Positions 8,089 through 38,594 of a stretch of 39,579 nt of DNA are shown one piece after another. The position numbers and the translations under genes are program-made. Below the pieces are notes generated by a model. The model was not told the DNA's origin, ran no database searches, and saw only the letters and a list, made by a program, of their open reading frames with translations. Position 1 is the stretch's first letter; each line of letters starts with the position of its first letter. This stretch comes from an uncultured Victivallales bacterium (GTDB lineage Bacteria; Verrucomicrobiota; Lentisphaeria; Oligosphaerales; JAFGRS01). The DNA lies in the NCBI GenBank assembly GCA_903933565.1, contig CAIZKT010000170.1, forward strand, positions 1 to 39,579, in the 5' to 3' direction.

Positions 8089-8112
8089 CAGCCGTTTGTT
8101 CGAGCGAGAGGG

Positions 8113-8630: not shown

Positions 8631-8838
8631 TCGATTGGGCGTCCGAATGGGCTCGAACGCCACCATCACGCGCCGAGGTTGCGAGGTCGCGTGCCTGTGC
8701 TTGTTCGGCCCCCCCTGAGTGCTCGCCTGGTCGCCGTGTATACCCACCCTCCGGCAATCTTGTCGATGGTCTTGGTCCGTCAATCCCGTCGCCAGGTTCT
8801 CGTTCAGGCGTCCCGGATCGCAGGACCAGAACAGCCCC

Positions 8839-10121: not shown

Positions 10122-10853
10122 TCAGAGTTGGCCGGCGGTTACTGTGATCGGCACCACGCGAACGTCCGGCGGGCCACTACGGCCGTTGTCCAACTGCGTT
10201 CCCAGAACCACTCGCAGCAGATGCGCCTGGAGGTCGGCGACGGCCTGCTTGACGCTCAGGGACGAGGCGATGGGGCCCGTGCCGGTACCCGGGTAGCGGC
10301 TCTCGCCGAGAAGCGTGGTCACAGGCGGGACGCCGGTAGCCGGGTCGTCCGGGACCTTGACCAGGTACCAGCGCACGACGTAGGTGATGCGGTCGGCAGC
10401 GACGGCGGTCTGGGCCAGACGCTCGAACTGGCAGTCCAGGGTCCAGGTGTCGTCGGCGAGCCTAGCGATGGCTCCGAGAATCCGCGGTGGAACGGCAAGT
10501 TCGCAGTTGACCAGGATATCGTGGCGCAGCACCGTACCCGCCTGCCAACCGACCGTGGACAGGGCGGCGAGGCTGTTCTCCCCAAGCGACGTGAAACGGA
10601 TGGGCTGCACCGGAGTTGGCGGAATCGCGACCGAGTAGTGTGCCTGACCGAAGTCCTCCTGGAGGCTGGTCTGCACCGGTTGGCCATCGACGCTGAGCGT
10701 CAGGACCGTGCCCTTGGGTACGGGGGTACCGTTGACTAGTGCCACGCCATGCAGAACCATCGGGCGTTGTGGCGGTTCGGCGGCACCGGCGATGTAGCCT
10801 GCACCCAACAGGCAGCCGAAAGCGAGGGTGAGAAGAGTGTCTGAGCGGAGCAC
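10122..10853 (-). CDS. Secreted hypothetical protein (243 aa from the preferred start), no recognisable family
   Basis: The preferred start is GTG 10853, preceded by GGAGG with a 7-nt spacer. It gives MLRSDTLLTLAFGCLLGAGYIAGAAEPP, a clean signal peptide. The track start at 10907 adds 18 non-signal residues. An N-terminal Ig/CarboxypepD_reg-like stretch is VLHGVALVNGTPVPKGTVLTLSVDGQPV. It lies 108 nt downstream of the giant ORF on the same strand. Confidence 0.7.
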   Translation of the reverse strand: MLRSDTLLTLAFGCLLGAGYIAGAAEPPQRPMVLHGVALVNGTPVPKGTVLTLSVDGQPVQTSLQEDFGQAHYSVAIPPTPVQPIRFTSLGENSLAALSTVGWQAGTVLRHDILVNCELAVPPRILGAIARLADDTWTLDCQFERLAQTAVAADRITYVVRWYLVKVPDDPATGVPPVTTLLGESRYPGTGTGPIASSLSVKQAVADLQAHLLRVVLGTQLDNGRSGPPDVRVVPITVTAGQL

Positions 10854-10961
10854 GTCACGACCTCCTTGGACGGTTCGAGAAGGGCTTCCGTCCTGCCCTC
10901 CCGTCACGATTCACCCGTCACGATTCACGCCCCGAATCCGAGCCCTTGTCTCTCGCCGCGC

Positions 10962-13900
10962 TCACCGCCAGTCGACCGAGGTCTGGCGCGAGGCCAGGTT
11001 GTACTTGAGCGTGCCGACGGCGAGCGGGACCGAGATTTCCTGCGTCTTGAGTTCCCACGGGCCGAAGTGCGCGTCGTAGTGGGCGTTGATGGTGCCGAGG
11101 GTGATCCAGCCCCAGTCGGTCGGCCAGCAGATCGCGTCCCAGCAGCAGCAGTCCCAGTCGGTCGGTCCCCAAATTCTGATCGGCAGGTCCAGATCCACCC
11201 AGGCATTGCCTTCGAGGCCCAGACCGAGCGCGTCGAGGAACTGCACCCAGACGGTGTAGTCGATCCCGGCGATGCCGATGCCCAGTGACTCGCTGTAGCT
11301 GACCTTGCCGCCTCTGGAGATGGCGAAGCTGGCGCTGCGCAGAGCGCGGTCGAAGAGATAGAAACCGCCGTTGATGAACAGACCCTCGTTGCCCACGGTC
11401 AGGGCACCCCTGATGCCGCTTCCCCTGACCATCAGGCTGGCGGCGCCGGTGAAGGAGAACTGGCCGTCGGGCCGCAAGTACCCCTCGACCAGCACCTGGC
11501 TGACGCCAAACAGGTCCATCTTGCCGCGGATGTAGAGGCCCTGCTCGCTGCCCAGCACGATCTCGGCCTCGCTGAGGGTGTAGCCGGCGAGCATCACCTC
11601 ACCGTTGCCGCGCAACTCGAACTTGCCGTCGGTCTCGATCGAGCCGGAAACCCGAAGCGCGATATTGACGTAATCCTGGTAGCCGGCCTGGACGTCGGCG
11701 TTGATGGAGAAGCCGCCCGGCTCGGTGCCGACCGGACGGCGGATACCCGCGGTCAGGCCGTCGTTGCGGGCGTAGGTCGGCCACCACGCCTCGGGGTTGG
11801 AGCCGGCGACCAGCGCGCGGCTGAAGCCGCCGGCGGCTGGCGGCAGGAGGAAACGGAGCTGCGCGCCGTTGGCGGCCGGCAGTTCGAACTTCGACTGCGG
11901 CTCGCCGGGACCGGCCGGCTCGATCTTTATGCTCTGGTACTCGGTGCGCAGGGCGTCGCCAACCTGCGTGACCAGGGGGCCTTCCGGCATCTGGGTCTGG
12001 CGGCGCATCACCCGGACATGCTGCGCCGCGTCGGCGGCTTGGGCCAGAGCGAACGTCTCGCCGCCGGCGTAGAGCGTGTAACCGGTAGCCGGGAAGGCGT
12101 AGCTGTCGGCCGTGGTTATCCTGAGTTGCACCGCGCCCTGCGCGTCATAACGGCAGTCGATGCGGTGCCGCGTGTCGCTCATCTCGACGCCGATGCGCGG
12201 CGCGTCCTCCTGGCGGGTCAGGTGCAGAACGCCGCCACCCGGCAGCGTGCGCGACACGTCGTAGCGCTGGCTGTCCCTGATGGCGTAAGGGGAGAAGACC
12301 TTGATGGACGACAACTGGTCGTTGCCGACCGGGTTGTTGACCAGCGAGTCGTCGGACTGGGTGAGCGTCTCGAGCGGGTCTGCCGGCGTGGCGCGGTACA
12401 CGATGACGGCCGGATTGTGGACCAGCACCCACTCATTGCTCCACGTCTCGTGCATCTCGATGGTCACGGGCATGGCCGCCTGGTCCACGTCGGCTACCAG
12501 CTCGAACGTCACCGGTGTGCCAACCGGCAACTGCGCCTTCGTCATACTAACAGACTGTTTCGTGCCCGCGGCCGACACGAAGTCTAGCCGTACCATCTGC
12601 GTGCTGTCCTTGGGGTACGAGGTGGTCGTCCTCGACGGGCCGAGAATCTGCGGAACCTGGACCGTAATGCCGCCGGCTTCCTGAAGCGTACAGGTGACAA
12701 CGAACCGGTAGCGGCCAGGCACATCACTCAAGGCGCAACGGAACATTCGCGACTCGTTGGCGCTGCCGAAACGCCAGCCGCCGGTCACGGCCCCGGCATT
12801 CGTGGTCCGCTTCTCCACCTCGCTCAGCGTGAAACGCCTGATCTCGCGCCAACCGCGGTACTGGTCGATGCCGTACAATGCGGCCGTGCCGCCGCCCTCG
12901 CAGCGGATGGAACTGGCAGCCTTGTCGCCGACCTCGGTACCGACCAGGCTGGGAAGATCGGCGGTGACCACCGTCGAGTGGCCCTCGTAGTTGCTGTTCT
13001 CGAACAGGGTGACGGTGCCATAGCGGGCACTGAGCGTAGCCTGAGTGCGGTCAAGTTTCAGGGCACTGATGGTGCGGCCCTGGTGGTCGGTGAGCGGACG
13101 CACCGCGACCGTCCAGTCCGGATGACTGGCCGAGGTGCGGCTGCTGTCCGGGTACTTCGGGAAGGCCAGCGTGGCGTCGCCGTCGACGCGCCCGTCGGCT
13201 TTGAGCGGCAGCATGACCCGGTTCCAGGTACCCTCGAGCCAAGTGCCCGGCTGTTGGAAGAAGTCCGGGTACGGCCGCAGATCGCCGAGGGCGGTGCGCA
13301 CCTGGCTGCAGGCGTCGGCCAGGCGGGCGCCGACGGACAACCAGAGCAGCCGCTCGCCGGCCGGGAAGCGCGTCTCCCACGCGCCGGCATCGAGCACCGC
13401 CACCACGCCGCTGCTCGAAGTGGCCACCACGCGCCAGTCCTTGATCTCGTATGGCTTGATCGGCAGGAAGACCAGGACCGAGGAAGCCTGATCGTTGAAA
13501 CTCTGCGTGCCCAGGTCGGCGATGTCCCGCGTTACGGTCAATGACGTGCCGCTCGCCTTGGCGTCGGCGTACAGGGTGATCTGACCGCTCCCCTCGATCT
13601 TGACCGAGGAGATGCTGTTGTCGGGCATGGGCTCGGCGTTGAAGTCGCGGTCGTCGGTCAGTTCCAGAGCGCTGCCGCCGAAGTTGGGGTCGCGGTAGAC
13701 GATGGTCCGGCCGCAGCGTACGCGCAGGCCGCCGTCGAGCCAGTGCACGGCGTTGATGTCGCCGCGGCTGCCTCGGTTCAGCTCGACCGCGACACGCCAG
13801 TCCGGCGACCAGGCGAAGAGCAAGCGGCGGTCACGCACCTCGGGGTTGGCGTCCCGGAGCTTCAGTCGCGTCAGCACCACGTCGAGATGCTGGTCCCAGG

Positions 13901-16900
13901 TCTTGTTGGCCGGCAGGGCCAGGTCGGTGATGAGCTGTTCGAGTTGCACCAATTCCGGCCGGATGTCCACGCCTTCCCACCGCACCGTGGCGCTGCCGCC
14001 GCCCAGGGCGGTCCCGATCGGGACCTGGCGCGTGACCACCGAGCCGGCGGCGAGCACCCGGAGCGTGTCGAGCGTGACCGCCGTAGCACCGGTCGTGCGC
14101 ACCCGGAACTCGATATCGGTGACGTCCGCCGGGACGGTGAAATCAACGATGCGGTTCTCGGTCTTGCCGGCGACGGCGAAGTCTGTACCCTTGAGGGTTT
14201 GACTCGCGAAGTTCTGGCTCCCGAGGCCGGCGGCGATGTCGAGGGTCACCACGTCGGAGGTGACACTGTGGCTGGCCACGCGCAGGCCAAACACCGCCTG
14301 GTAGTTGCCTTTGGCCACCGGCCGGTACGGGCCGTAGACCATGTGGCCGGTCTCGCCCTGGTTCGCGATCCACGGGCACGGCCCGAAGGCGCGCCGCAGC
14401 CAGTAACGGCGGCCACCGGCGTCGGCGGCGCGGCCGAAGAAGGCCTGGTAGGAGTCGTTGGCGAACGCTTCCCTCACTCGGTCCTGGAGCTGGTACTTGG
14501 TCACGGCGTCAGCCAGGCAGGTCGCATCCGTGGGGAGCGCCTGTCTCAGGCCGTCGGCGGTGACCGCACCGCTCCCGGCGAGGCGCGCGTACAGCGCGTC
14601 GACCGCCGCCGCCCCGAACACCTTCTTGGCTTCGGTCCGCAAGGCGTCCACGGTCAGGTTGCGGTTGGTGAACTCGGCACTGGCCAGCCACTTGCCCGTC
14701 AGGAAGCTGACCTGGTCGCGCACCGGCGTGAGCTTCTCGGCGTGGCCGCAGCGGTGCATCATCTCCCAGTCGTGCCCGGACCAGCAATCGAGTTCCGGCC
14801 GCAGCACCAGCTCGGTCGGGTCGCCTCCCGTGTTGGCGTTGACGTAGCGCACCCGCTGCACAAAGCGTTCGAGGTCGGGCAGCTTCGCCACGGCGTGTTC
14901 CTCGAACAGCGTGCGGTCGCCGCGGATCGAGTAGCCGGCGTTGGCGCGGAAGCCGCGCAGATCCAGCGTGCCCTGTTTCTCGCGTGCCGACGGCGGGATG
15001 ACGACATCCACCACGTCGTAGATGCTGTCGGCACTGGCCAGCTTCACCACCGTTCCCGGATCAAGCTGGATGCGGTCGATAAAGGTCCAGCGATCCAGGC
15101 CGAAAACGCTCCTGAACACATGGTCGGTGTGCTGCCACTGGCCTTCTTTGTACATATAGCCGGGGACTTTCGGGAAATCGAGGTAGACATCGTGGATACC
15201 GAAGGCTGGGGCGTGCAACTGGCCGAGTTTCTCCCAGTTCACCTCGCCGCCGTTGAAGGCGTCGACCAGGAACGTGATCAGGGTCAACAGGTCCTGGCCG
15301 GTCGGCGCCGGAAAGCTGAAGCCGATGTTGGTGGCGAAGCCGCACATGTAGGTCTTGCCGTCGAGACTGTCGAAGAAGGCGAACCCGACCGGCGGCAGCG
15401 TAACCGGCAGAACGTAGTAGAGCCGCTCGGTATGGTACTCGAAGCCGGAGATCGGGATCAGCCCGCCGCCGATGGTGGCGTCGTCGATCTGCACCAGGTG
15501 CGCCCCAGCGATGCAGCGGTATGACACCTTGTTATGCACGCCGAACTTGAAGAAGCCGGCCAGATCCACGTCGACGCCAGCGGCGCCGAAATCGAGGGTG
15601 AAGAATACGCTGGGGCCCTGCATGCCGATCTCGAACCCCAGCGTGCGCCCGGCCACACCGACCCGGCCCCGGCCGGCGAAGGCCCCCAGCGAGTTGACCT
15701 TCAGCGAATCGAAGGTGAAGACCGCCTGGCCGAGCGGGCCCATGTCCACGCTCCTGGCGGCGTCGACGGTGAGGATGACCTCGAAACCGTTGACCCCGGC
15801 CTGGAGTCTGCCCTTGAGTGCCTCGCCGAACACGGCGCGCAGCGGGTTGTCGCGAGGCAGAGCGAGGTTCACATCGCCGCTCAGCCCGAGTTCCTTCCCG
15901 ACCGCCATGCCGAAGTTGCTGACGGCCAGCCCGACGTCGCCGGGCAACTTCAGGTCCATGAGCGCGTCGGCCGGGAGCAGGAACTTGAAGCCGTTCTCGA
16001 TCACGGTCATGGTCCCGTCGAAGCTCTTGCCGCCGAAGCCGACGCCGCCCTTGAACCCGAAGTTCCACGGGCTCTGCTTGGTGAGGATGAGTTCGTTGAG
16101 CATCAGATCGAACCCGGCCAGTTCGAGTTTTTTGTCGAGCCGCACGCCGCAGAGCCACCCCGGTCGAACACCGGTGCGGTAGTACTTGCCGACCAGGGTC
16201 AGGCGCTGCGGGATTTCGCACAGGCTCTCGTGCGCCTGCTGGACCACGCGGGTCGGCAGGATCAGCTCGATGGTGGCATCGAGTTCCCAGGTATTGGTGC
16301 GGCCGCCGCCGCGTTCGACGACTCCGTGCAGGTTCTTCAGGACGATGCCGCCGTCCTCCTCGTTGGCGCCCTGGCGGTCTTTGTTGAAGGCAAAGTTCAG
16401 GAGGTTGCTGCCACGCAGCTCAACGTTCCAGATGCGATTGCCAGAGGCATCGTACTGCTGAGTGTAGGTCGCCCCGAGGGTGATGCGCGGCCATTGCTCG
16501 CGCGGCGTGTTGTCCGGGTCGGGCACGAAGTCCTTGGCTATCAGGTCCACGTCGCAGTTGACCATGCAGCTCTTCTTGCCCGGCGCGGTCTGGATGACGA
16601 CGTTCGAGAGTTTCTCGAACTCAAGGGTCGGGATGTCCTTGAACTCCTCCGCGAACTTGGCTGGGTTCTGGAAGACGATGGCGCCGGCGGTCAGGGTCAC
16701 GGTGGCGCTCTTCAGGTCGCCCTCGGGGAAGCTGATCATACCGCTCAGTTCGATGCCGTCGGGAAGGCCGAACTTGTCGCGGATTTCCTGGTTGTCGAAG
16801 CGGCCGGAGATCAGCAGTTGCAGGTGCTTCAGGAATTCCTTGCCCTTCGGCTGGTTGGCGCCGGCGCTCTTGAGGTACACCGGGAACGTGACGATCAGCG

Positions 16901-19900
16901 AGTCGACGCGGCCGAACTCGAAGTCGCCGGCGATCGCGGCGAGGTCCGAGCAGGCCAGCGTCGCGATCCAGTTGCCGTCGGCGTCGCGCGCCAGCATGCC
17001 CTCGAAGGCCATCGGATGGCCCTTCCAGATCAGCCGACCCCTGACCGCCAGGTCAATCGTCAACGGCGTGACTTGCCACACCATGTATGACTCGTCGAAG
17101 GTGCACTGCACGTCGTCGGTACCCACGGAGAAACTGAGCTGGAGCAGCATGGACATCCGGTCGACGCCGCTGAGTATGGCCCAGAAGGGCTTGTCCTCCT
17201 TGTACTCGACCTCGAGGGTCGAGGTAAAGCCGCCGAACAGGGGCTGGAACTCGGGCGGGGCCTCGAGGCGGCTGGAGAGCAGGGCGCGCTCGACATAGAA
17301 GCAGTTCGGGATGTGCGTGCCCTCGTGGAACTTGTAGCGGTTCAGCGCGTGCTTGAAGGTCGCCACCCAGGTGTTGATGAACCAGTTGCGGTTGGTAATC
17401 TCGAACTCGTACGTCTGGGCCGCGAAGCGGAACTCGTAGGGGGTGAAACTCCAGCCCTCGACGCTGACCGGGTTCGGCTCCGTGTCCGAGACGTGGACGC
17501 TGAACACCGGTTCCGACTCGTAGGTGATCTCTTTGTCAGCGTCCGCGAACGGCTTGGATTTTACCCCGGCCCAGTCTTCGAAGGCCACGGTCTTGCCGAC
17601 CCAGGGCGAGTCCTTATCGGTGATGTTGCCGCGCGCCGTCCAGCCGACGTAGAACGTATGCAGGTTGCGGTCCTGCCCGTCACGGCTGAGGAAGCGCTGG
17701 TAGACGCTCTCCAGCCACAGCTCGGTGTCGAAGCTCTCGCTCTGGAGGTTCAGTTCGGACCGCAGCCAGTGCGACACCCCCATGTGGTTCTCGTCGATGA
17801 TCTCCACCCTGTACCGGTAACCGATCGGAATGACCAACTCAACCTTGTTGATCGGTTCGATCACGTCCAGGCTCAGGTCTGCGCCCAGCGTGAACGACGA
17901 CCCCGCCATGCGTTTCATGGCGTCCGGCGTGGGGAACCAGATCGTGTCGTGGAACATGCCGCTCAGCATCGCCCAGAAATAGCCGCTGATCAGGTCGAAC
18001 AGGCCAACCGCCACGCCTTCTTCTCTCAGATTCTGCGCCTGGCCGCGCAGGTGCATGATCATGTCAACGCCGAGCGTGCCGTCGAGCCGGGCGTCCTTGA
18101 TTTGGGTGCCGTCGTCGTAGGTGCCGCTGGACGCCAGAATCGCGGTGAAGCCCATATTCGGCAGCCAGTGCCCGCGCCGGTACTCGACCCAGAAACCGAT
18201 GTGCTCCCAGCGGTTGTCGGTGAACTCGATGCGGCCATGCCGCCAGGATAGGCGCGTCTGGCGGGCGCGCCCGTCCTCGAACCAGAGGGTGCCGTACTCG
18301 TCGACGTAGAGCTTGTTGTCCTGGACGGGCAGACTCAGGTCGTCGCTCCGGCCGCCCGGAGCCAGGCGCCGGAGAATCTGCAGGCGTTCGATGCCGGTGC
18401 AGACCATGACGGCGCGCTCGGCGCCCTGGTCGCCGCTGGCTTCGCCACGGCTGAAGACCAGCCATTTCTCCGGGTCATACCCGAAGCTGGCCGGGGTGTC
18501 GCCTTTCCCTGCCGGCAGCGGCTCGAACACCTCCTCGGCGCTCTCCGGCATGTTCAGGAGCCACTCGCCGGCGGCGCAATCCTGGAGCGCCGTACGGCGT
18601 TGTTCCTTGGCGCTCAGGCTCTCGGCGACATCGGCGGCGGCGGCGAGCGGCGGCAGCTTCCAGACCTGGGACATGATCACGTCGCTCTCGCCGCCGCCGC
18701 TCTCTTCGTCCTGCTTGCCGAACACCGTGGCGAAGCGGGCCCAGTAGAAGTCGGTCTCGTCCTTGATGCGGCCGGAGCGCTCCTCCTGTTCCATGCCCGA
18801 CGGCGTGAAGGCCTCGACGAACCCGGGTGCGGCGTCGGTGCCCTGCAAGCCCGTAGCGTACTCCATCTCGATGTGCAGGAATCCGTCGGGATAGAGGTCG
18901 GTGACGGCAATGGTCAGATACAGGAGGTCTGCCGCCGGAATCCCGCGCGCGAAACCGTTGAGCACGCCGTTCTCGGAGCGGCTGGGCGCCAGGTACACCG
19001 CGCGGGTCAGGCCATCGCCTTCGAGGAGCGGGCCGCCGGCAAAGGCGCTGCGGGGTTGGTTGTCGACGAACTCGATGTCAACCAGGAACGGCAAGTCATC
19101 GTTGACCGCCACCAGGGCGGCAACGCTGCGCGGCAGGTCCTTGACAATGCCGAGCCCGTTCAGGCGGTGGCCGGCGCCGTCGACGCGGTAGCGCACCTTC
19201 TCGATGACGAACGCGCCAAGGGTGACCGCTTCTTCCGCCACCTTGGGGTACGCGTCCGCCTTGCCCGCGAGTGTCGCTTCGAGCCGCGCCAGTTCGGCAT
19301 CGCGCTCCGCCGGCGTACTGCCGGTGGGCGCGGCGGCGCCCAGCAGAATCCGGGGCAGCGTCGCCGCTTGGGCGGCGGTCGGCTCGGGCGGCGGCGGCCG
19401 CTGGACCCAGTAGGCCCGGCCGGCACGCAGCGGGTCGTCGGCCGCCAGGCGCTCGGCCGCACCCGACGGCGCGGCACCCGCGGCGGTGTAGACCTGGTCG
19501 TGCTCCAGATCCAGGCCGACCTCGGGGTGCTCCTGGACCAGACGCCGCAGGCTGGTCTCGCCCGGCTCCCAGGCCTGCGTCTGGGCATTGCGCCGCACCA
19601 GTCCCACGCCCAGGCACTGCCAGCCGGGCACCAGCGCCGAGGTGATGGGCTCGCCGGGGCCCGGGGCGAGGCCGACCAGGCGCCAATCCAGATCGCCGTC
19701 GACCGTGAGCGACAGCCCGGCAAAATCCGGCGGCGCCACGGCCGGCCAACTCACGGCCCGCGGGCTGACGCTCTGCCACTGCTGCGTGGCGGCGTCGAAC
19801 CAGGCGACCGCTTCAAGGTGCGGCAGGATATCGGCGAAGAGCAGATCGGGTCGGCGTTGCCGTGCGTCGATGGCCAACGGCACCGAGACCAGGTTCACAC

Positions 19901-20069
19901 CCGCTTTGAGGTGAAGGGTGACGTCGGCCAACTCGCCGGCAGGCAGGCGCGCTACGATGGCCGCCAGCAGGGCCAGACTTGAGACCCCTATCCGCCGCCA
20001 GCAGCTCCTTCGCACCCAACACCTCCCGCCCCAGCCCGCGAACCCTGGCTCGGCTTGCAGTGCTCCCAT
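10962..20069 (-). CDS. Giant secreted or cell-surface protein (3,035 aa) of unknown function with beta/gamma-crystallin-type and DUF4214-like modules
   Basis: Uninterrupted 9.1-kb ORF with protein-like composition throughout. All plus-strand ORFs over it are R/G/D/H-rich shadows. The N-terminal hydrophobic segment is RRIGVSSLALLAAIVARLPAG. An alternative start, GTG 20015, is preceded by GGGAGG with a 6-nt spacer. Recognised pieces are listed as separate features below. The rest has no family I can name, including long Gly/beta-rich stretches such as GFKGGVGFGGKSFDGTMTV ... GVAGRTLGFEIGMQGPSVFFTLDFGAAGVDVDLAGFF. Confidence 0.85.
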   Translation of the reverse strand: MGALQAEPGFAGWGGRCWVRRSCWRRIGVSSLALLAAIVARLPAGELADVTLHLKAGVNLVSVPLAIDARQRRPDLLFADILPHLEAVAWFDAATQQWQSVSPRAVSWPAVAPPDFAGLSLTVDGDLDWRLVGLAPGPGEPITSALVPGWQCLGVGLVRRNAQTQAWEPGETSLRRLVQEHPEVGLDLEHDQVYTAAGAAPSGAAERLAADDPLRAGRAYWVQRPPPPEPTAAQAATLPRILLGAAAPTGSTPAERDAELARLEATLAGKADAYPKVAEEAVTLGAFVIEKVRYRVDGAGHRLNGLGIVKDLPRSVAALVAVNDDLPFLVDIEFVDNQPRSAFAGGPLLEGDGLTRAVYLAPSRSENGVLNGFARGIPAADLLYLTIAVTDLYPDGFLHIEMEYATGLQGTDAAPGFVEAFTPSGMEQEERSGRIKDETDFYWARFATVFGKQDEESGGGESDVIMSQVWKLPPLAAAADVAESLSAKEQRRTALQDCAAGEWLLNMPESAEEVFEPLPAGKGDTPASFGYDPEKWLVFSRGEASGDQGAERAVMVCTGIERLQILRRLAPGGRSDDLSLPVQDNKLYVDEYGTLWFEDGRARQTRLSWRHGRIEFTDNRWEHIGFWVEYRRGHWLPNMGFTAILASSGTYDDGTQIKDARLDGTLGVDMIMHLRGQAQNLREEGVAVGLFDLISGYFWAMLSGMFHDTIWFPTPDAMKRMAGSSFTLGADLSLDVIEPINKVELVIPIGYRYRVEIIDENHMGVSHWLRSELNLQSESFDTELWLESVYQRFLSRDGQDRNLHTFYVGWTARGNITDKDSPWVGKTVAFEDWAGVKSKPFADADKEITYESEPVFSVHVSDTEPNPVSVEGWSFTPYEFRFAAQTYEFEITNRNWFINTWVATFKHALNRYKFHEGTHIPNCFYVERALLSSRLEAPPEFQPLFGGFTSTLEVEYKEDKPFWAILSGVDRMSMLLQLSFSVGTDDVQCTFDESYMVWQVTPLTIDLAVRGRLIWKGHPMAFEGMLARDADGNWIATLACSDLAAIAGDFEFGRVDSLIVTFPVYLKSAGANQPKGKEFLKHLQLLISGRFDNQEIRDKFGLPDGIELSGMISFPEGDLKSATVTLTAGAIVFQNPAKFAEEFKDIPTLEFEKLSNVVIQTAPGKKSCMVNCDVDLIAKDFVPDPDNTPREQWPRITLGATYTQQYDASGNRIWNVELRGSNLLNFAFNKDRQGANEEDGGIVLKNLHGVVERGGGRTNTWELDATIELILPTRVVQQAHESLCEIPQRLTLVGKYYRTGVRPGWLCGVRLDKKLELAGFDLMLNELILTKQSPWNFGFKGGVGFGGKSFDGTMTVIENGFKFLLPADALMDLKLPGDVGLAVSNFGMAVGKELGLSGDVNLALPRDNPLRAVFGEALKGRLQAGVNGFEVILTVDAARSVDMGPLGQAVFTFDSLKVNSLGAFAGRGRVGVAGRTLGFEIGMQGPSVFFTLDFGAAGVDVDLAGFFKFGVHNKVSYRCIAGAHLVQIDDATIGGGLIPISGFEYHTERLYYVLPVTLPPVGFAFFDSLDGKTYMCGFATNIGFSFPAPTGQDLLTLITFLVDAFNGGEVNWEKLGQLHAPAFGIHDVYLDFPKVPGYMYKEGQWQHTDHVFRSVFGLDRWTFIDRIQLDPGTVVKLASADSIYDVVDVVIPPSAREKQGTLDLRGFRANAGYSIRGDRTLFEEHAVAKLPDLERFVQRVRYVNANTGGDPTELVLRPELDCWSGHDWEMMHRCGHAEKLTPVRDQVSFLTGKWLASAEFTNRNLTVDALRTEAKKVFGAAAVDALYARLAGSGAVTADGLRQALPTDATCLADAVTKYQLQDRVREAFANDSYQAFFGRAADAGGRRYWLRRAFGPCPWIANQGETGHMVYGPYRPVAKGNYQAVFGLRVASHSVTSDVVTLDIAAGLGSQNFASQTLKGTDFAVAGKTENRIVDFTVPADVTDIEFRVRTTGATAVTLDTLRVLAAGSVVTRQVPIGTALGGGSATVRWEGVDIRPELVQLEQLITDLALPANKTWDQHLDVVLTRLKLRDANPEVRDRRLLFAWSPDWRVAVELNRGSRGDINAVHWLDGGLRVRCGRTIVYRDPNFGGSALELTDDRDFNAEPMPDNSISSVKIEGSGQITLYADAKASGTSLTVTRDIADLGTQSFNDQASSVLVFLPIKPYEIKDWRVVATSSSGVVAVLDAGAWETRFPAGERLLWLSVGARLADACSQVRTALGDLRPYPDFFQQPGTWLEGTWNRVMLPLKADGRVDGDATLAFPKYPDSSRTSASHPDWTVAVRPLTDHQGRTISALKLDRTQATLSARYGTVTLFENSNYEGHSTVVTADLPSLVGTEVGDKAASSIRCEGGGTAALYGIDQYRGWREIRRFTLSEVEKRTTNAGAVTGGWRFGSANESRMFRCALSDVPGRYRFVVTCTLQEAGGITVQVPQILGPSRTTTSYPKDSTQMVRLDFVSAAGTKQSVSMTKAQLPVGTPVTFELVADVDQAAMPVTIEMHETWSNEWVLVHNPAVIVYRATPADPLETLTQSDDSLVNNPVGNDQLSSIKVFSPYAIRDSQRYDVSRTLPGGGVLHLTRQEDAPRIGVEMSDTRHRIDCRYDAQGAVQLRITTADSYAFPATGYTLYAGGETFALAQAADAAQHVRVMRRQTQMPEGPLVTQVGDALRTEYQSIKIEPAGPGEPQSKFELPAANGAQLRFLLPPAAGGFSRALVAGSNPEAWWPTYARNDGLTAGIRRPVGTEPGGFSINADVQAGYQDYVNIALRVSGSIETDGKFELRGNGEVMLAGYTLSEAEIVLGSEQGLYIRGKMDLFGVSQVLVEGYLRPDGQFSFTGAASLMVRGSGIRGALTVGNEGLFINGGFYLFDRALRSASFAISRGGKVSYSESLGIGIAGIDYTVWVQFLDALGLGLEGNAWVDLDLPIRIWGPTDWDCCCWDAICWPTDWGWITLGTINAHYDAHFGPWELKTQEISVPLAVGTLKYNLASRQTSVDWR
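12849..13019 (-). other. Beta/gamma-crystallin-type Greek-key module 2 inside the giant ORF
   Basis: GTVTLFENSNYEGHSTVVTADLPSLVGTEVGDKAASSIRCEGGGTAALYGIDQYRGW fits the pattern (x-LYE-x-x-NF-x-G, then ..D..SSI.. and a second strand pair). Confidence 0.5.
13467..13712 (-). other. Beta/gamma-crystallin-type double Greek-key module 1 inside the giant ORF
   Basis: GRTIVYRDPNFGGSALELTDDRDFNAEPMPDNSISSVKIEGSGQITLYADAKASGTSLTVTRDIADLGTQSFNDQASSVLVF. DNSISS and NDQASS match the microbial Ca-binding motif N/D-N/D-x-x-S/T-S. Confidence 0.55.
14397..14485 (-). other. DUF4214-like motif inside the giant ORF
   Basis: DRVREAFANDSYQAFFGRAADAGGRRYWL resembles the DUF4214 core (..lY...LGR..D..G...W). Confidence 0.4.
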
Positions 20070-20097: not shown

Positions 20098-22929
20098 ATG
20101 GCGACTTTTCAACGCGGCGGAGGACAAGTGGTTCTTTGCGGCCAACGACGTAGGCCCCGCCTGGCGCTGACCCGCGGTTGGGTTGGGGCCGCTCTTCTCC
20201 TTGCCGGTGCCGCTTTCGTCGTGCCCGCCGCGGCCGAACCCCTCGGAGAGTACTTCGTCAACCTGGGCATCATCGAGCGTGGCGCCGGCAAAGTCATGGA
20301 CGACGTGTTCCCGGTCGAGATCCGGCCGTTGCGGGTGAACAACGAGGAACTGCTCACGCGCCTCCGCGGCTTCTCGTTCTATGACGGCGCGACCTACCGC
20401 TTCCTGCAGAAAGGCGCCGACTGGCGGCTGTTCAAGCTCGAGCCCGGCCGGCGGCCGGTCGAGATACGGCTCTACGGGATGATTTTCCCGCCGGCCCAGC
20501 GGGGGCGGATCATGATGCAACTGCGCCGGGTCGCCCCCATGGTCTTCAGCGAGTATGACCTCGAGAACAAACTCGCTCTGATGGGCGTGCTCGGCGTGGC
20601 CGTCAGCGGGGGTGTACTCCATGAGGCCTTCACCGAGGTGTGGAAACCGCCACCGCCCGAGGCCGGCGGGGCGTTTCCACGCGTGCTCCTGACCAATGGC
20701 GAGACGACCCTTGGCCGCTTCGCCTACGACAACTGGCTCGATGAACGCGAACCGGTCATCTTCACGGCCGACGACCGGGTGGCGATGCCGGAGGACCCGA
20801 CCGGGAAGCGCAAGTTCCTCAATGCCCTGATGCTCAAGATTGGCCCCAGTCAGGAGATGATCGACCTAGGTCTGAACAACGAGGACGACGAGATTTTCAT
20901 CTCGAAAGCGGACCGGTGTATCCCGAGCCAACTCAAGGTCGGCGGGGTCACCCTGCAACTGCCGGCCATGAAGGTCCGCTTTGTCTACGTGTCCCAGCGC
21001 GGCGACACCACGGGCTACGGCTCGGCCAAGGCCGCCTTCATCCCCGTGAAGCTCGGCGATGCCTACCTGATTCAGGTCTACCCGGCGGCGCTGACCTCAG
21101 TGTACTGCCTGCTCGGTGCGTTGCGGCGCGAGTTGTACCACGCCCAGTGGTGGAACGCGGTCGCGTATCTGGACGTCTCCGATGTGCGCCAGAACCGTCT
21201 GCGCGAGTTCCTGCTGCGCACGGACTGGTGCGTCTACGAGCAGGAGATTTTCGCCGCCGTCAACGGTGGCAAGACCGAAGTGGTCACCTTCGAGGCCGAC
21301 CAGGCGGCCTTCGACTTCGAGGCGCGCAAGGCCTTTCTGCTGGCCGTGGCGCGGGCCCGGATCAACCCGGAGTCGCTCGAGGCCGCCAGCGCCCTGCCGT
21401 GGACGTCCAATCGAGCCCTGATCATGCCATGCACGGTGCGCAAACTGGCGCCCGACAATACAGAGTTCAATGAACGCACCAGAGAGTGGTTCGCCCGGCA
21501 CGGTTGGCAGTTGCAGTTCAACCGGCGCGGCGGCGCCTTCTGCAGCCTGGCGGTGTTCGAGGCGGCCCCGACCCGGTTCGCGCCCGGCGACCGCGTGCTG
21601 CCGCTGGCCCGTGTCTATGCCGGCACGGTCGACCCGGGCGAGGCCCGGAACCTGCCGACCGCCGCCCGCAACCGCTTCTACGACTATCTGCGCCGGGCCG
21701 TGGCCAGCAACTACACCATGTCGCGGCAGGCGCGCAAGACCGGCCTGGCGTTTGCTCTCGAAGCGCTCAAGGAAGACGTGCGCCGGGCCACTCCTCTGAA
21801 GGATCGCCCCGCGCTGAACTTCGAGCTGCTGGATCGGGTGCATGCCGTCGGTTTCCAGTATTCCGACCCGGACTGGCTGCGGCTGATGGTGGATATCCTC
21901 GACCGCGATTACAGGTCTGCGGGCGGGGACGGCGCCGGCTATTTCGACATCCGGGGTATGACCGACCACCAAGGCGACCCGGCGCGCGCCGCCAACCGGT
22001 TTGTGCCTTCGGACGGCGACATCATGCGCTGCGATCGCCTGGACGAACTCGCCTACAGTTTCGAACGCACGGCGTACTATCAGCCTTGGGTTGCCATTGA
22101 GCCCTACCTGGACAACACGAGCAACTTGTACAAGACCGTGGCGGCAGAGATGAGCCCAGACGACAAATTCACGTTCGACAACGGCGGGGAAAATCTGCGG
22201 TTCGTGAAGCGCATCCATGACGAGTTGCACGAACTGTACATCGCCTTGGTTGGCGATGTGCAGGTGGTGGAAGGCAAGCCCACGGTGCGGAACAACCCCT
22301 GGGAAAACAACACCCGCGGGAGGTACCGGGCCGCCTACGTGGCGTGGCGGAGGCAGAACCCCATGCCGGCCTCTGAGCCGCCGGCCGTGCTTACCGCGCG
22401 GCTGGCCTATGAGGCGGCCGTGCGCACCTTCAGGCAGAGATTGGCCTTGCATATCCAGGTGATTCCCCAAGGAACCACCCGATGGGCGGAGGCCATGATC
22501 GAGGTCTGCCCCAGGGGGACCAAGGCGGGGAGAGCGGCGCGGCGCGAACTCGACTTGTTTCACGACCAAGCGCTGGCGCTCAGCATGGGCGAGAGAGCCC
22601 TTTGCGTGTCGCGCGGGGTCATGACCTGGCGCGAGCTCATCCAGGACTACCTCACCACCGATACCCCGCCCGCCAACAACAGGGCACGGGGCACGTGGCT
22701 GGACCTCGAGGCCTTCTACTGGCGTCGGCCGCTCGACGGCAACCCTCTCGAATTCTGCGACGCGGACGGCAAGGTTTTCGCAGGGGACCGCTTTGCCACC
22801 GTGGACGCCCTGCCGGAAGAGGAGATGCAACTGCCGGAAGAGACCAAAACCGAGGAGAGCAGTTCGGAGGATGACCCGCCCCCGAAGGAAGGGCTCGTCG
22901 TCGAGGTCCAGCCGGAGAAGAAGAACTAG
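20098..22929 (+). CDS. Secreted 943-aa orphan protein with acidic C-terminal tail, no recognisable family
   Basis: N-terminus QRRRPRLALTRGWVGAALLLAGAAFVVPAAAEP is a signal peptide. The composition is protein-like, rich in aromatics and mixed charge. The C-terminus is EEEMQLPEETKTEESSSEDDPPPKEGLVVEVQPEKKN. It is divergent from the giant ORF, and the antisense 577-aa ORF is compositionally junk. Confidence 0.8.
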   Translation: MATFQRGGGQVVLCGQRRRPRLALTRGWVGAALLLAGAAFVVPAAAEPLGEYFVNLGIIERGAGKVMDDVFPVEIRPLRVNNEELLTRLRGFSFYDGATYRFLQKGADWRLFKLEPGRRPVEIRLYGMIFPPAQRGRIMMQLRRVAPMVFSEYDLENKLALMGVLGVAVSGGVLHEAFTEVWKPPPPEAGGAFPRVLLTNGETTLGRFAYDNWLDEREPVIFTADDRVAMPEDPTGKRKFLNALMLKIGPSQEMIDLGLNNEDDEIFISKADRCIPSQLKVGGVTLQLPAMKVRFVYVSQRGDTTGYGSAKAAFIPVKLGDAYLIQVYPAALTSVYCLLGALRRELYHAQWWNAVAYLDVSDVRQNRLREFLLRTDWCVYEQEIFAAVNGGKTEVVTFEADQAAFDFEARKAFLLAVARARINPESLEAASALPWTSNRALIMPCTVRKLAPDNTEFNERTREWFARHGWQLQFNRRGGAFCSLAVFEAAPTRFAPGDRVLPLARVYAGTVDPGEARNLPTAARNRFYDYLRRAVASNYTMSRQARKTGLAFALEALKEDVRRATPLKDRPALNFELLDRVHAVGFQYSDPDWLRLMVDILDRDYRSAGGDGAGYFDIRGMTDHQGDPARAANRFVPSDGDIMRCDRLDELAYSFERTAYYQPWVAIEPYLDNTSNLYKTVAAEMSPDDKFTFDNGGENLRFVKRIHDELHELYIALVGDVQVVEGKPTVRNNPWENNTRGRYRAAYVAWRRQNPMPASEPPAVLTARLAYEAAVRTFRQRLALHIQVIPQGTTRWAEAMIEVCPRGTKAGRAARRELDLFHDQALALSMGERALCVSRGVMTWRELIQDYLTTDTPPANNRARGTWLDLEAFYWRRPLDGNPLEFCDADGKVFAGDRFATVDALPEEEMQLPEETKTEESSSEDDPPPKEGLVVEVQPEKKN

Positions 22930-25720: not shown

Positions 25721-26767
25721 CTACGGCGCCGTCGGCGGCTTGGGCACGTCGGCCTCGGTCGGGGTCAGGCCGAGAAGCTGGAACAGGCACCCGGCCAGCT
25801 TCGGCTTCTCCGTCCAGTACACGTTCATCTTCAGTTCGCCCTGCGCATCGAAGAACAGCGCGTACGGTTTGAATGGGACTTTCAGGAGCATGCTCAACTG
25901 GTTGGTCGGGTCGGCAAGGACGGTGCCACTGAGCTTGTTCTGCGTGGCAAAGGTGTGGACCTCGGCGTCGGTGCCGATGACGATGTAGACCAGATGCACC
26001 CGATCCTTGAGCCGGGGCCAGGTGAGCAGCTCCTCCGTGGCCGCGGCCATCTCCGGGCAGCGCTGGCTGCGCGGTGAACAGAAGACCAGCACCAGGGGCT
26101 TGTCCCCTAATGCGGTTGAATCGAAGTCGTTTCCGTTAAGGTCTTTGGACTTGAGCGGTGGCAGCTTGGCACCGGGCGTCAGGATCTTCTGCTCCAGATT
26201 GACCGTGTACCCCTTAGGCGGTCCGGCGGGCGGCTTCATGGTCTGGGTGCCGGCGGCGGCGGCGACACTGCTCATCAGGATGAGGACGGCCTGCTGAACC
26301 TGCTGCGGGTCCTTGCCGCGCAGGAAGCTGAGCAGCGGCTCGATATCCACCACCTGCTCGCCGACGCGCCACTCGCGCAGCGGCACCAGGTCCACCACCT
26401 GGCCGCGGGCGTCGTAGCAGACCAGGTACTCGACCTGGCTGCCGAGCCCTTCGGGCAGGATCGACTTGACGTGGCTGACCATACCCAGGCTGCGCTCGCC
26501 GCTGAGCAAGGCAAAATTCCGCACCTCGAATCCGGACGCGTGCATGCGCACGTCGGCCTTGAACTCGAGCCGGAACGGTCCCGGCGCCGTCTTTGCCTCG
26601 GGGAACAGCCGCAGGGCCTGGTCGAGCATGCCGGGCTCGGCCGTCAGGTTCTGACCGCGCGCGGCGAGGGGAAGGATCAGGAGCAACAGTGCCAGCCCCA
26701 GGCGCGTCCCCACTGTTGTTCTCGGTCCGACGTCCCGGTAACCTTGGTCTGGCATCGGTCGCTTCAC
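25721..26767 (-). CDS. Secreted two-domain protein with C-terminal TlpA/ResA-like thioredoxin fold carrying an atypical C-X6-C
   Basis: GTG start preceded by GAGGAGGAG with a 6-nt spacer. The signal peptide is GTRLGLALLLLILPLAARGQ. The C-terminal layout is SKDLNGNDFDSTALGDKPLVLVFCSPRSQRCPEMAAATEEL ... VHLVYIVIGTD ... VLADPTNQL ... KPYALFFDAQGEL. This is the TlpA-like order, but FCSPRSQRCPEM replaces the canonical WCxxC. Confidence 0.7.
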   Translation of the reverse strand: MKRPMPDQGYRDVGPRTTVGTRLGLALLLLILPLAARGQNLTAEPGMLDQALRLFPEAKTAPGPFRLEFKADVRMHASGFEVRNFALLSGERSLGMVSHVKSILPEGLGSQVEYLVCYDARGQVVDLVPLREWRVGEQVVDIEPLLSFLRGKDPQQVQQAVLILMSSVAAAAGTQTMKPPAGPPKGYTVNLEQKILTPGAKLPPLKSKDLNGNDFDSTALGDKPLVLVFCSPRSQRCPEMAAATEELLTWPRLKDRVHLVYIVIGTDAEVHTFATQNKLSGTVLADPTNQLSMLLKVPFKPYALFFDAQGELKMNVYWTEKPKLAGCLFQLLGLTPTEADVPKPPTAP

Positions 26768-26937: not shown

Positions 26938-27591
26938 TCAGCGCGGATGAGGGGCTTCCGGGTCGTTGTTCTGTCCCTCCCGGTCGACCAGTCCGGGCGC
27001 CGGGAGGACGGTACGGATCGTCACGGTTCGGTCGAGCCCACGGCGGCTGAATGTCACCCCGAGATCCACGGCGAACCAGGGTTCCGTCGTCGGCTGCGCC
27101 ACGGTAGCTTCCCAGCGGAAGCGGTCGAATTCCTTGCCAAAAACGCCGGCACGCTTGCCTGGGGCCAGGCGCGCGTCTTTCTCGAGGTCGAGCATGACGG
27201 TGCGCGCCAGCAGGGCAGCCTGAGTGTAGTCTTCGGCCGTGCCGGTGTTGCGCAGACAGAGACCGAATCCGTCAAGCAGCACCACCAGCAACACCGCGCC
27301 CACCGCCGCGGCTACCAGCACCTCGAGCAGTGTGAACGCAACCGCGCGCCGGTCCCCCGGCGTTACCCCGCCAGGACGGCGCGGGATTGGCGATGCGCGG
27401 TGGCGGTGTCGGCGCCCAGCCGGAAGATCAGCCCAGACTTCAGCCGGGTCCAGGTGACGCCCAACGGGCGCGGCAGCCCCCGGCCCGGACGAGCCAGGGG
27501 CGGATACCGAATACCGAGTGACGGACGCTGAATAGCGAAGCGGCGGGGGGCTGGGGCTCTCGGACGAGGACCTTGGACATTCGGCAATCAT
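26938..27591 (-). CDS. GspI-like minor pseudopilin with an unusually long (85-aa) N-terminal leader
   Basis: Prepilin-type motif AFTLLEVLVAAAVGAVLLVVLL, then a GspI-like body (EDYTQAALLARTVMLDLE ... FRWEATV ... VDLGVTFS ... TVTIRTVL). ATG 27591 overlaps the upstream stop as ATGA. I found no in-frame ATG/GTG/TTG between 27591 and the Phe codon at 27334-27336. Confidence 0.7.
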   Translation of the reverse strand: MIAECPRSSSESPSPPPLRYSASVTRYSVSAPGSSGPGAAAPVGRHLDPAEVWADLPAGRRHRHRASPIPRRPGGVTPGDRRAVAFTLLEVLVAAAVGAVLLVVLLDGFGLCLRNTGTAEDYTQAALLARTVMLDLEKDARLAPGKRAGVFGKEFDRFRWEATVAQPTTEPWFAVDLGVTFSRRGLDRTVTIRTVLPAPGLVDREGQNNDPEAPHPR

Positions 27592-28079
27592 CGCGGTTTG
27601 ATCCGGGCCAGGCTGCCGCCGGCGGCGATCTCGATGTGCTGTTGCGCGCCGGTGTCATCGCTCAACACGAACAACAGTTCGTCCATGCCGCCCCACGGGG
27701 CGACGTCCCAGGCGACCTCAACGCCAGGGGTCAATTCCTGGCGATTGCGCACCACGCGCACCAGGCTGACGCCCGGCGGCAGTACCCACCGTCCGAGGCG
27801 CCCCTCGATCGGCTCAAGCACGACCGGGGCTGCGGGCGGCGACGCGATCTTCGCGACCCGCAGGCTGCGCCTGTCGGCGCTCAGAATTAGGCGGCACTCG
27901 GCGCCAGTGCTCGCCGCCAGGTCGCGGGTGGCGTTATGCACGATCATCACCTGTCGCGCGCTCTGCGCCAGGCGCAGGCTGCGGTAGAACTCGCCCAACC
28001 GCGGGGTACTGATGGCCAGCACGACGCTGACCATGCAGACCACCACCATCAGTTCGAGAAACGTGAACTGTTTTGTCAT
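27588..28079 (-). CDS. GspH/FimT-like minor pseudopilin
   Basis: MTKQFTFLELMVVVCMVSVVLAISTPRLGEFYRSLRLAQSARQVMIVHNATRDLA. ATG 28079 overlaps the gspF stop as ATGA. The track's 344-aa version (to 28622) is an out-of-context N-terminal extension lying over gspF. Confidence 0.75.
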   Translation of the reverse strand: MTKQFTFLELMVVVCMVSVVLAISTPRLGEFYRSLRLAQSARQVMIVHNATRDLAASTGAECRLILSADRRSLRVAKIASPPAAPVVLEPIEGRLGRWVLPPGVSLVRVVRNRQELTPGVEVAWDVAPWGGMDELLFVLSDDTGAQQHIEIAAGGSLARIKPR

Positions 28080-31024: not shown

Positions 31025-31056
31025 GTTCGATCTACGTCAGCACGATTACGTCCGGG

Positions 31057-31497: not shown

Positions 31498-31501
31498 GGT
31501 A

Positions 31502-33920: not shown

Positions 33921-33995
33921 GTCTGTGCTCTAGCCCTTTCGCCGCCCTTGCCGACCTCGCCTCGAGACCGCCGCCGCGGGGGCCACGGCGGACCA

Positions 33996-36622: not shown

Positions 36623-36626
36623 CGCG

Positions 36627-38512: not shown

Positions 38513-38565
38513 GGCCTGTCTTCCCTCCATTGCAGCGGGATTAGTCACATAGCTCCACGAGTTCA

Positions 38566-38594
38566 CATATAGTACCCCACGCGCGCCGATGCAA
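38566..38594 (-). promoter_or_regulatory. Candidate sigma70-type promoter of the secretion operon
   Basis: On the minus strand: TTGCAT (38594-38589), 17 nt spacer, TATATG (38571-38566). This leaves a 5' UTR of about 45 nt before the gspG ATG. It is motif-level evidence only. Confidence 0.3.

Follow-up and report, generated by a model that had tools for sequence, protein, structure and literature searches.

The giant gene and its locus

The stretch of DNA considered here, hereafter the window, is 39,579 nucleotides long (positions 1 to 39,579, forward strand, of contig CAIZKT010000170.1 in GenBank assembly GCA_903933565.1, from an uncultured Victivallales bacterium). It contains an open reading frame (ORF) of 3,035 codons, the product of which we call the giant. 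The initial annotation, made from the sequence letters, described a single unbroken ORF encoding a mostly unrecognisable protein, and this description holds: the reading frame is uninterrupted, and about 85-90% of the protein matches no described family. The operon context of the gene and the insertion architecture of the protein were missed in that reading, and the context is the decisive evidence. The giant is not an orphan. It belongs to a very rare, previously undescribed family, and the linkage of the giant gene to a type II secretion system (T2SS) and to a set of accessory genes is conserved. The features discussed below are collected in Table 1.

Table 1. Positions of the giant gene, its parts and the linked genes in the window (aa, amino acids, numbered in the giant from the ATG; nt, nucleotides)
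Feature	Position	Strand	Basis or remarks
Giant ORF	10962..20069	(-)	3,035 aa from the ATG at 20069; 3,017 aa if the start is the GTG at 20015
Probable true start and signal peptide	19947..20027	(-)	Shine-Dalgarno GGGAGG at 20022-20027, GTG at 20015, then RRSCWRRIGVSSLALLAAIVA (aa 19-41)
N-terminal double module (aa ~46-225), L.LK.G.N.VS.P ... GW...G ... G.(A/G)YW	19395..19934	(-)	Kept in all family members
Poorly conserved N-terminal half (aa 226-1119), Trp-rich at aa 596-641 (nt 18147-18284)	16713..19394	(-)	Aligns with homologues, lowest conservation
Conserved beta core (aa 1120-1718)	14916..16712	(-)	Conservation; part matched by exhaustive HMMER search in all relatives; hairpin meander predicted by AlphaFold2
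Motifs of the beta core			SPWNFG 1333, LDFGAAGV 1492, LPPVGFAFFD 1558, FPKVPGY 1632, IPPSAREKQGTLDLRGF 1691
Insertion of ~1,050 aa (aa 1719-2771) bearing decorating modules	11757..14915	(-)	Missing from P0012, P0013 and P0014
DUF4214-like fragment (aa 1863-1891)	14397..14483	(-)	15.6-19.2 bits, under the Pfam cut-off of 23.2
Beta/gamma-crystallin module 1 (aa ~2120-2201), DNSISS and NDQASS	13467..13712	(-)	Inhibitor_I36 and Crystall; weak PDB matches to spherulin 3A and clostrillin
Beta/gamma-crystallin module 2 (aa ~2345-2420)	12810..13037	(-)	Crystall, 47.4 bits windowed; hhalign to module 1 98.7%
Partial third crystallin (Greek-key) motif NNPVGNDQLSSIKVF (aa 2578-2592)	12252..12362	(-)	hhalign to module 1 84% over 16 columns
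Conserved C-terminal beta module (aa 2772-3035), with Trp/Cys-rich hairpin at aa ~2949-3006 (nt 11052-11225) and near-terminal Trp	10965..11756	(-)	Highest conservation in the family
Accessory gene, 943-aa exported protein of unknown family, divergent from the giant	20098..22929	(+)	Homologues adjoin the giant in L004, L005, L006, L007 and L008
Accessory gene, 261-aa exported protein of unknown family, directly downstream	10122..10907	(-)	Homologues in L004, L005, L006 and L008
Accessory gene, 348-aa exported thioredoxin-fold (AhpC/TSA-like) protein	25721..26767	(-)	Pfam AhpC-TSA; homologues in L004, L006, L007 and L008
Divergent type II secretion cluster	26938..38566	(-)	Pfam Secretin, T2SSE, T2SSF, T2SSG, T2SSK, T2SSM with PDZ, PilN; NCBIfam

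What kind of machine lies beside the giant? The cluster holds genes for GspI-like and GspH-like proteins, GspF, GspE, a 176-aa partner protein, a MinD/ParA-like ATPase, the GspD secretin, a GspM/C-like protein with a PDZ domain, a PilN-domain protein that we take as GspL-like, GspK and GspG. Among the NCBIfam models, GspG scores 155.7 bits (cut-off 88.9) and GspD 346.6 bits, about 5 bits short of its cut-off of 351.4; the GspE and GspF models are the best-scoring for their proteins, under their cut-offs, and GspK-, GspH-, XpsI- and GspC-like matches are also found. For D, E, F, G, K, H and I it is the T2SS models that rank top. By these profile matches the machine is a T2SS, in which D, E, F and G, minor pseudopilins and L/M/C-like proteins are present.

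Genes for a T2SS or for ParA lie within 10 kb of the giant gene in eight of eight independent loci of the family, counted as the window, L003, L004, L005, L006, L007, L008 and L012. The order is plainest in L008, where one strand carries GspK, the PilN-domain protein, GspM/PDZ, the secretin, the thioredoxin-like, 261-like and 943-like proteins, the giant, the 176-like protein, ParA and GspE. More distant, compact relatives of the giant, described below, are found beside a secretin in L010 and beside GspE and GspF in L009. One of them, P0012, is encoded about 700 bp from a lone secretin gene, with no other T2SS gene within 10 kb, and in Cloacimonadota the gene of the relative precedes those for GspE and GspF.

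Three accessory genes recur with the giant (Table 1), their homologues being recognised by BLASTP at E-values of 1e-8 to 1e-73. The 943-aa protein begins with what reads as a putative signal peptide, and neither it nor the 261-aa protein has a match in Pfam or in a PDB sequence search. The thioredoxin-fold protein has FCSPRSQRC, a C-x6-C arrangement, at the position expected for a redox-active CxxC, and may therefore not be a classical thiol-disulfide oxidoreductase.

The MinD/ParA-like ATPase (250 aa) and its 176-aa partner are encoded at 31057-32254 (-), between the secretin and GspE. The pair is also present in L003, L005, L008 and L012, with ParA 57-66% identical, and the conserved C-terminal ~88 aa of the partner look like a winged helix-turn-helix. 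A T2SS does not usually have such a pair, which hints at a module for positioning or regulation; nothing specific was found in the literature on a T2SS variant with ParA.

Between the 943-aa and thioredoxin-fold genes, at 22981-25626 (+), lies a gene for a HAMP-GAF membrane sensor of 881 aa, in which no output domain can be recognised. The last ~40 aa of this sensor match the C-terminus of a dCache_3 protein that adjoins the giant in L003, and GAF proteins are encoded near the giant in L004. The sensor may be a conserved regulator of the system.

The gene for the giant is real and coding. Its GC content at the three codon positions is 0.65/0.47/0.89, in DNA that is 66% GC overall, and because neighbouring genes show the same pattern we read the ORF as real coding sequence and not as a chance ORF. 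A protein identical to the giant (P0001) is encoded on contig k141_114853 (51.6 kb) of ENA ERZ27313539 and in Logan ERR4221775, both being independent assemblies of one sample. Where does translation start? The annotated ATG is 28 bp away from the ATG of the divergent neighbour (20098), and an in-frame GTG with an upstream GGGAGG (Table 1) appears the more plausible start. Translation from the GTG would give an N-terminus M-RRSCWRRIGVSSLALLAAIVA, which reads as a signal peptide; it contains the sole strongly hydrophobic 19-mer of the giant, and transmembrane helices are absent elsewhere in the protein. The relatives likewise begin with what read as short Sec-type signal peptides with AxA-like end sites (for example ...FATSA|DD in P0005). 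A Sec signal peptide, which is required of a T2SS substrate, is thus apparent in the giant and its relatives, a feature that is necessary, not sufficient. Promoter and terminator scans of the window gave background levels only, and tRNA and Rfam searches of the window gave no matches.

A rare family and its architecture

An exhaustive HMMER search, with aa 560-1759 as query against 1.84 billion representative proteins, gave 17 matches at E<=0.001, 12 at E<=1e-10 and 11 below 1e-30, among them proteins of 2,681-3,014 aa. Six full-length homologues are collinear with the giant from signal peptide to last residue at 24-30% identity. The family, which is collinear over its whole length, numbers about 12 proteins of 2,681-3,285 aa and spans several phyla, Lentisphaerae and Thermodesulfatator included; its members, singletons throughout, were recovered from metagenomes or from metagenome-assembled genomes. 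The only names that the sources give are 'DUF4214 domain-containing protein' (Thermodesulfobacteriota) and 'hypothetical protein' (Desulfuromonas sp.). An alignment-based scan of one genome per GTDB species found three loci (Lentisphaerae, Thermodesulfatator and, with a shorter relative, Cloacimonadota), the same scan with the single giant protein found nothing, and a JGI metagenome scan added one further locus only. Intact homologue ORFs of 2,971 and 3,285 aa are present in L007 and L008. A word-indexed protein search returned only the giant itself when the whole giant was the query, and in addition one weak RHS match when a 7-sequence alignment was used; very long queries seem to swamp the prefilter of that search, known relatives being in the collection.

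The initial annotation had asked whether orthologues keep the length and domain order of the giant, and had offered interruption of the ORF in relatives as a sign of decay. Length and module order are kept, so this test is answered, and the homologues, all of them distant (24-37% identity), have uninterrupted ORFs of 2,681-3,285 aa. Could the ORF nevertheless be an artefact or a decaying gene, that is, a chance ORF in GC-rich DNA or the remnant of a pseudogene? GC-rich DNA does give long spurious ORFs, and a 593-aa ORF lies on the opposite strand here. In L004, moreover, the 3' end of the giant gene runs on in another frame (18790-19194 of that locus), and the 943-like gene is split into ORFs of 445 and 462 aa (7013-9677). 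Frameshifts were seen among the homologous loci only in L004. The name of the L004 contig suggests what we presume to be a long-read assembly, in which indel errors are common, and for this reason we read the frameshifts as probable indel errors, not decay. Against an artefact stand the GC at third codon positions of 0.89, like that of neighbouring genes, the full-length collinear homologues in several phyla, the presence of two strongly conserved blocks, and the identical gene in two independent assemblies of the sample. Homologues and codon bias effectively refute the idea, which we find barely conceivable.

Which parts of the giant can be named? A Pfam search with the whole protein matched only Crystall, Inhibitor_I36 and, below threshold, DUF4214, and a scan of ten overlapping 420-aa windows at E<=10 found no family beyond these. 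Crystall (PF00030, cut-off 25) reaches 38.1 bits with the whole protein, with its best stretch at aa 2353-2406, and 47.4 bits in a 420-aa window; it is also matched in five of seven family members. The Inhibitor_I36 match, at aa 2124-2175, coincides with the first crystallin module. The initial annotation had called two beta/gamma-crystallin modules and a partial third, and the Pfam and hhalign results bear this out. Motifs of the form N/D-N/D-x-x-S/T-S occur as DNSISS (aa 2150), NDQASS (aa 2192) and NDQLSS (aa 2583), with a degenerate GDKAASS at aa 2381; N/D-N/D-x-x-S-S motifs are known calcium sites in microbial beta/gamma-crystallins. A DUF4214-like motif, also proposed, is present as a fragment at aa 1863-1891 that covers 29 of the 72 model positions of PF13946 and scores 15.6 and 19.2 bits, below the Pfam cut-off of 23.2. 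The relative P0007 is named as DUF4214-containing by NCBI.

Beyond these modules the profile searches are largely silent. NCBIfam, PHROGs and PADLOC gave no match for the giant, and PHROGs and PADLOC gave none for the accessory proteins either; because these two collections matched nothing, readings of the giant as a phage-tail protein or as part of a defence system were dropped. PDB sequence and profile searches found crystallins only, plus a ricin-like trefoil that comes in through the relatives. Self-BLASTP of the giant found no internal repeats, and all-against-all hhalign comparison of 16 sub-alignments of the family links only the first crystallin module to the second (98.7%) and to the third motif (84% over 16 columns). 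With no repeat-family HMM matches besides, the absence of internal tandem repetition noted in the initial annotation is upheld, and profile searches did not tile the protein with known adhesin or toxin repeats; since tandem repeats are absent, the giant is unlike RTX, cadherin or Ig-repeat adhesins. Two further ideas were set aside. The two Gly-rich regions, one in the middle (aa 1320-1500) and one at the C-terminus, are not homologous to each other as repeats (hhalign probability 1.5%), and we do not claim that aa ~1900-2010 and aa ~2420-2580 resemble carbohydrate-binding modules, the sole support being a 22% hhalign link between them.

The stretches quoted in the initial annotation lie as that reading had placed them: the Trp-rich one (aa 596-641) in the poorly conserved half, NNPVGNDQLSSIKVF in the insertion, and the C-terminal Gly/beta stretch (aa 2821-2906) in the last module. 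Conservation is concentrated in two blocks, aa ~1320-1720, which includes LPPVGFAFFD, FPKVPGY and IP.DKRKG...NLRGF, and aa ~2760-3035. In three compact, distant relatives, P0012 (1,730 aa), P0013 and P0014, the core is followed directly by the C-terminal module. Because these relatives align continuously across the point where the giant has aa 1719-2771, the crystallin- and DUF4214-like region is an insertion: core and C-terminal module are one unit, into which the crystallin-bearing ~1,050 aa are inserted. Family members differ in the length of the insertion (798 to 1,448 aa), and in some relatives the insertion carries a ricin B lectin. Windows of the giant and searches with relatives gave no family match for the N-terminal half (aa 226-1119). 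Six complete homologues end in a Trp (...x-V/I/A-x-W), the giant ends W-R, and the last residue of the compact relatives is not aromatic. Across the wider superfamily only Gly, Phe, Pro and Ile residues are invariant, which argues for a scaffold rather than an enzyme.

Of one Gly-rich beta module the giant has a single copy (aa ~1311-1476) and P0012 has three, at aa 168-339, at aa 643-817 and within aa 828-1458; the scaffold can therefore grow by module duplication.

The N-terminal module has a wider distribution. By profile search it is present in 71 further proteins, in none of which Pfam names the module; there it is combined with Big_5, NosD/beta-helix, LTD, fn3 and PKD domains; the named sources are Thermoplasmata, Methanobacteriota and Chloroflexi, and a copy stands at the C-terminus of the RHS protein P0018 (aa 3169-3332). 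Widespread as it is in archaeal and bacterial surface proteins, this module merits a family definition of its own.

What fold might the conserved unit adopt? AlphaFold2 was given the spliced unit, aa 1120-1718 plus aa 2772-3035, with a 22-row alignment in which the core and C-terminal segments of homologues stood as separate rows. The resulting model (mean predicted local distance difference test score, pLDDT, 72.1; predicted template modelling score, pTM, 0.44) is an almost all-beta meander of about 58 strands in consecutive hairpins, with few helices and with low confidence at the splice. Block means of pLDDT in the core are mostly 70-90 over aa ~1340-1680. The C-terminal module is modelled as about 15 strands at pLDDT 80-93, two of them 27 residues long; these form a hairpin (aa ~2949-3006) that is Trp/Cys-rich in the giant, Trp/Lys/Arg-rich in some relatives and strongly basic in P0005, P0006 and P0011. 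A single-sequence prediction of aa 560-1759 was unusable (pLDDT 31.5). The suggestion in the initial annotation that the Gly-rich regions are beta thus agrees with the predicted strands. Foldseek comparison of the spliced-unit model with PDB and BFVD found nothing significant (E>=4e-3, query template modelling score, TMq, <=0.17), and the weak top matches (the teneurin YD shell; the TbpA, SprA, LptD and FimD barrels; ApoB100; a Chorein_N protein) are generic large beta meanders.

The same annotation had gone further and proposed an AsmA/TamB-like or beta-taco fold, in which the giant would be a bridge across the periplasm with a hydrophobic groove for the transfer of lipid or protein. The Gly-rich amphipathic beta hairpins and the predicted all-beta meander would suit such a bridge, the insignificant matches of highest TMq include lipid-binding beta-sheet proteins (a mimivirus Chorein_N protein at 0.17, ApoB100 at 0.13), and a C-terminal aromatic residue recalls TamB. 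The searches do not support it, however: AsmA, AsmA_2, DUF748, DUF3971 and TamB/DUF490 are unmatched in the giant (windowed, E<=10) and in 11 relatives, and the profile of core plus C-terminal module aligns with E. coli TamB at an hhalign probability of 0.2%. The signal peptides of the relatives read as short and cleavable, not as membrane anchors, insertions of lectin type and of crystallin type are typical of extracellular proteins, and where a TamA/BamA-like barrel might be expected the conserved partner is a T2SS. We regard a bridge of this kind as very improbable, and the interpretation first given to the giant is, taken as a whole, partly supported.

Possible roles of the giant

What does the giant do? 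From its constant position beside a T2SS, the giant is most likely the dedicated cargo or surface-binding protein of that system. More specifically, we see about an even chance that the giant is exported by Sec, is then secreted or displayed by its own T2SS as the exoprotein dedicated to it, and serves as an adhesin or matrix protein that binds calcium and glycans; the evidence from which we infer T2SS-dependent secretion is the synteny in all eight loci. One may picture the following course of events. A cleavable Sec signal peptide would bring the giant into the periplasm, where it would fold, and where the thioredoxin-fold, 261-aa and 943-aa proteins may assist it or travel along. The GspE-driven pseudopilus of GspG, H, I and K, together with the GspD secretin, would then push the giant across the outer membrane, with the MinD/ParA-like ATPase and its 176-aa partner perhaps setting the place of the machine or regulating it. 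Once outside, the beta-meander scaffold of core and C-terminal module would display two binding regions. One is the ~1,050-aa inserted arm, with its presumptive calcium-binding beta/gamma-crystallin modules and, in some relatives, ricin lectins; the other is the N-terminal module, common to many other surface proteins. A scaffold that displays both would be a calcium- and glycan-dependent adhesin or matrix protein, perhaps held at the cell surface by its Trp-rich C-terminal hairpin.

Several points weigh against this reading. Synteny fits a cargo and a structural partner of the machine alike. At ~330 kDa, a folded substrate would be roughly double the largest T2SS substrates known to us, of which SslE (~165 kDa) is an example, and the placement of a cargo and three accessory genes between gspD and gspE is unusual. 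All family members come from metagenomes or metagenome-assembled genomes, and the pTM of the model is only 0.44. The adhesin role draws on modules that make up <15% of the protein. Finally, the conserved terminal Trp and the weak Foldseek resemblance to barrels would suit a protein embedded in the outer membrane equally well.

This last point leads to a structural part for the giant. Here the core and C-terminal unit would be embedded in the outer membrane or docked on the secretin, after insertion by the beta-barrel assembly machinery through a C-terminal aromatic signal, and the N-terminal half and the arm would be displayed at the surface. The ...x-V/I/A-x-W ends of the six complete homologues and the W-R end of the giant fit such a signal; the last residue of the compact relatives, which is not aromatic, speaks against it. 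The position of the giant gene inside a T2SS operon is as expected of a machine part, and the compact P0012 adjoins a secretin that stands alone. The long up-and-down meander of the model, whose weak top matches include the chitoporin barrel beside those of TbpA, SprA, LptD and FimD, might also be taken to point this way. Yet all these PDB matches are non-significant (E>=4e-3, template modelling score, TM, <=0.13), and the model has short turns at both ends of nearly all strands, whereas outer-membrane barrels usually alternate short turns with long loops. About 58 strands is, to our knowledge, far above the number in any known barrel, and no outer-membrane-protein family was matched in the Pfam scans. 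On balance we think a structural part of this sort unlikely.

Might the cargo instead be a weapon? The giant would then be a toxin or membrane-attacking effector exported by the T2SS, a cocoon or pore scaffold like those of Rhs, Tc or teneurin proteins, with the C-terminal Trp/Lys/Arg-rich hairpin inserting into membranes. The teneurin YD shell is the top PDB match in Foldseek, though with a TM of 0.07 and a probability of 0.11, and the N-terminal module is also found at the C-terminus of an RHS protein; nonetheless RHS/YD, MACPF, Tc and other toxin HMMs are unmatched in all family members. The 27-residue aromatic hairpin is strongly basic in the three relatives named above, and a role in predation has been proposed for giant proteins that lie beside T2SS loci in Omnitrophota. 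A conserved small immunity-like gene adjoining the giant is lacking, however, as are conserved polar or catalytic residues across the superfamily. We judge a toxin quite improbable.

A further conception departs from the T2SS as ordinarily understood. The giant and the three accessory proteins would all be integral parts of an undescribed T2SS-derived machine, in which the core and C-terminal unit would form an envelope or surface structure that is docked on the secretin or lengthens it, and the ATPase and its winged-helix-like partner would position or regulate the whole; such a machine would be a new branch of the type IV filament superfamily. We hold this to be distinctly unlikely, and the exported adhesin or matrix protein is the reading we favour.

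The remainder of the window contains features outside this system. Downstream of it, at 4851-10014, are genes for an ASST/Mal s 1-like beta-propeller, a GH36/melibiase-like glycosidase and an LVIVD-repeat protein, and these three were not found beside the giant in the other loci. Between the LVIVD-repeat and melibiase genes, at 8113-8590 (-), lies a pair resembling a BrnT toxin and a CopG-like antitoxin. Positions 1-4200 have a lower GC content, 0.54-0.62, and lack long ORFs that show the local codon bias; five short ORFs were tested, with no Pfam match for any. This region may be foreign, non-coding or degraded DNA.

Significance and comparison with known systems

The family comprises about 12 sequences in ~15 billion public proteins, about 85-90% of each protein is without a recognisable domain, and the conserved core is without a detectable structural relative. 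It is tied to a specific T2SS variant, found across phyla and marked by a MinD/ParA-like ATPase and three accessory genes. As a cargo, the giant would by a wide margin be the largest known T2SS substrate, and would put to the test how big a folded protein can be and still leave through a secretin; as a structural partner, it would mean a T2SS-derived machine of a new kind. The conserved operon is a clear candidate for experiment in uncultured lineages of Lentisphaerae, Thermodesulfobacteriota and Cloacimonadota.

How does the giant compare with proteins that are better known? Exoproteins encoded beside their own T2SS genes have precedents in PulA of Klebsiella and SslE/YghJ of E. coli. With these the giant would share a Sec signal peptide, a gene at or within a gsp cluster and, as we propose, a large folded product that is surface-associated or released. 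It differs in having no sequence or detectable fold similarity to them, in being about twice the size of SslE, and in being no recognisable enzyme or lipoprotein. Its gene also lies between gspD and gspE, in the company of three accessory genes and a MinD/ParA-like ATPase.

Giant proteins beside T2SS-like loci have been reported in Omnitrophota, at lengths of 10,000 to >100,000 aa (bioRxiv 10.1101/2023.11.21.568195, 10.64898/2026.06.07.730766). The full-length ones all have many transmembrane regions and most have SecA-like domains (bioRxiv 10.1101/2023.11.21.568195), and in a catalogue of such giants about 85% have predicted transmembrane helices (bioRxiv 10.64898/2026.06.07.730766). The present family resembles them in being very long and largely unannotated, in having gspD/E/F-type genes alongside, and in carrying adhesion or carbohydrate-binding modules. 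Unlike them, its members are ~3,000 aa long, with a single signal peptide and no transmembrane helices, we see no homology between the two, and the family is found in Lentisphaerae, Thermodesulfatator and Desulfuromonas, with a shorter relative in Cloacimonadota. What is new here is the protein family, which has no detectable homology to exoproteins of the PulA/SslE type or to the Omnitrophota giants.

Other likenesses are to parts of the giant or to its general form. Like the microbial beta/gamma-crystallins Protein S, spherulin 3A and clostrillin, it has two modules above the Pfam threshold and N/D-N/D-x-x-S-S motifs, yet these modules are ~5% of the giant, lie within a variable insertion, and decorate the family without defining it. 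Its long beta-hairpin sequence, which is Gly-rich and amphipathic, the prediction that it is all beta and an aromatic residue at the C-terminus recall the AsmA/TamB bridges, but the giant lacks HMM or profile similarity to them, and its cleavable-looking signal peptide, extracellular-type insertions and T2SS partner set it apart. From Rhs/YD and Tc toxins it differs in having no RHS_repeat matches, the N-terminal module alone being common to one RHS protein. With the giant adhesins that are built from repeats (RTX/LapA, cadherin-like, Big/Ig-repeat and SiiE) the giant has in common its size, apparent export, putative calcium-binding modules and a probable adhesive role; where those adhesins have tandem repeats, a type I secretion signal and neighbouring type I secretion genes, the giant has none of these, and is composed instead of unique modules arranged around a predicted beta scaffold.

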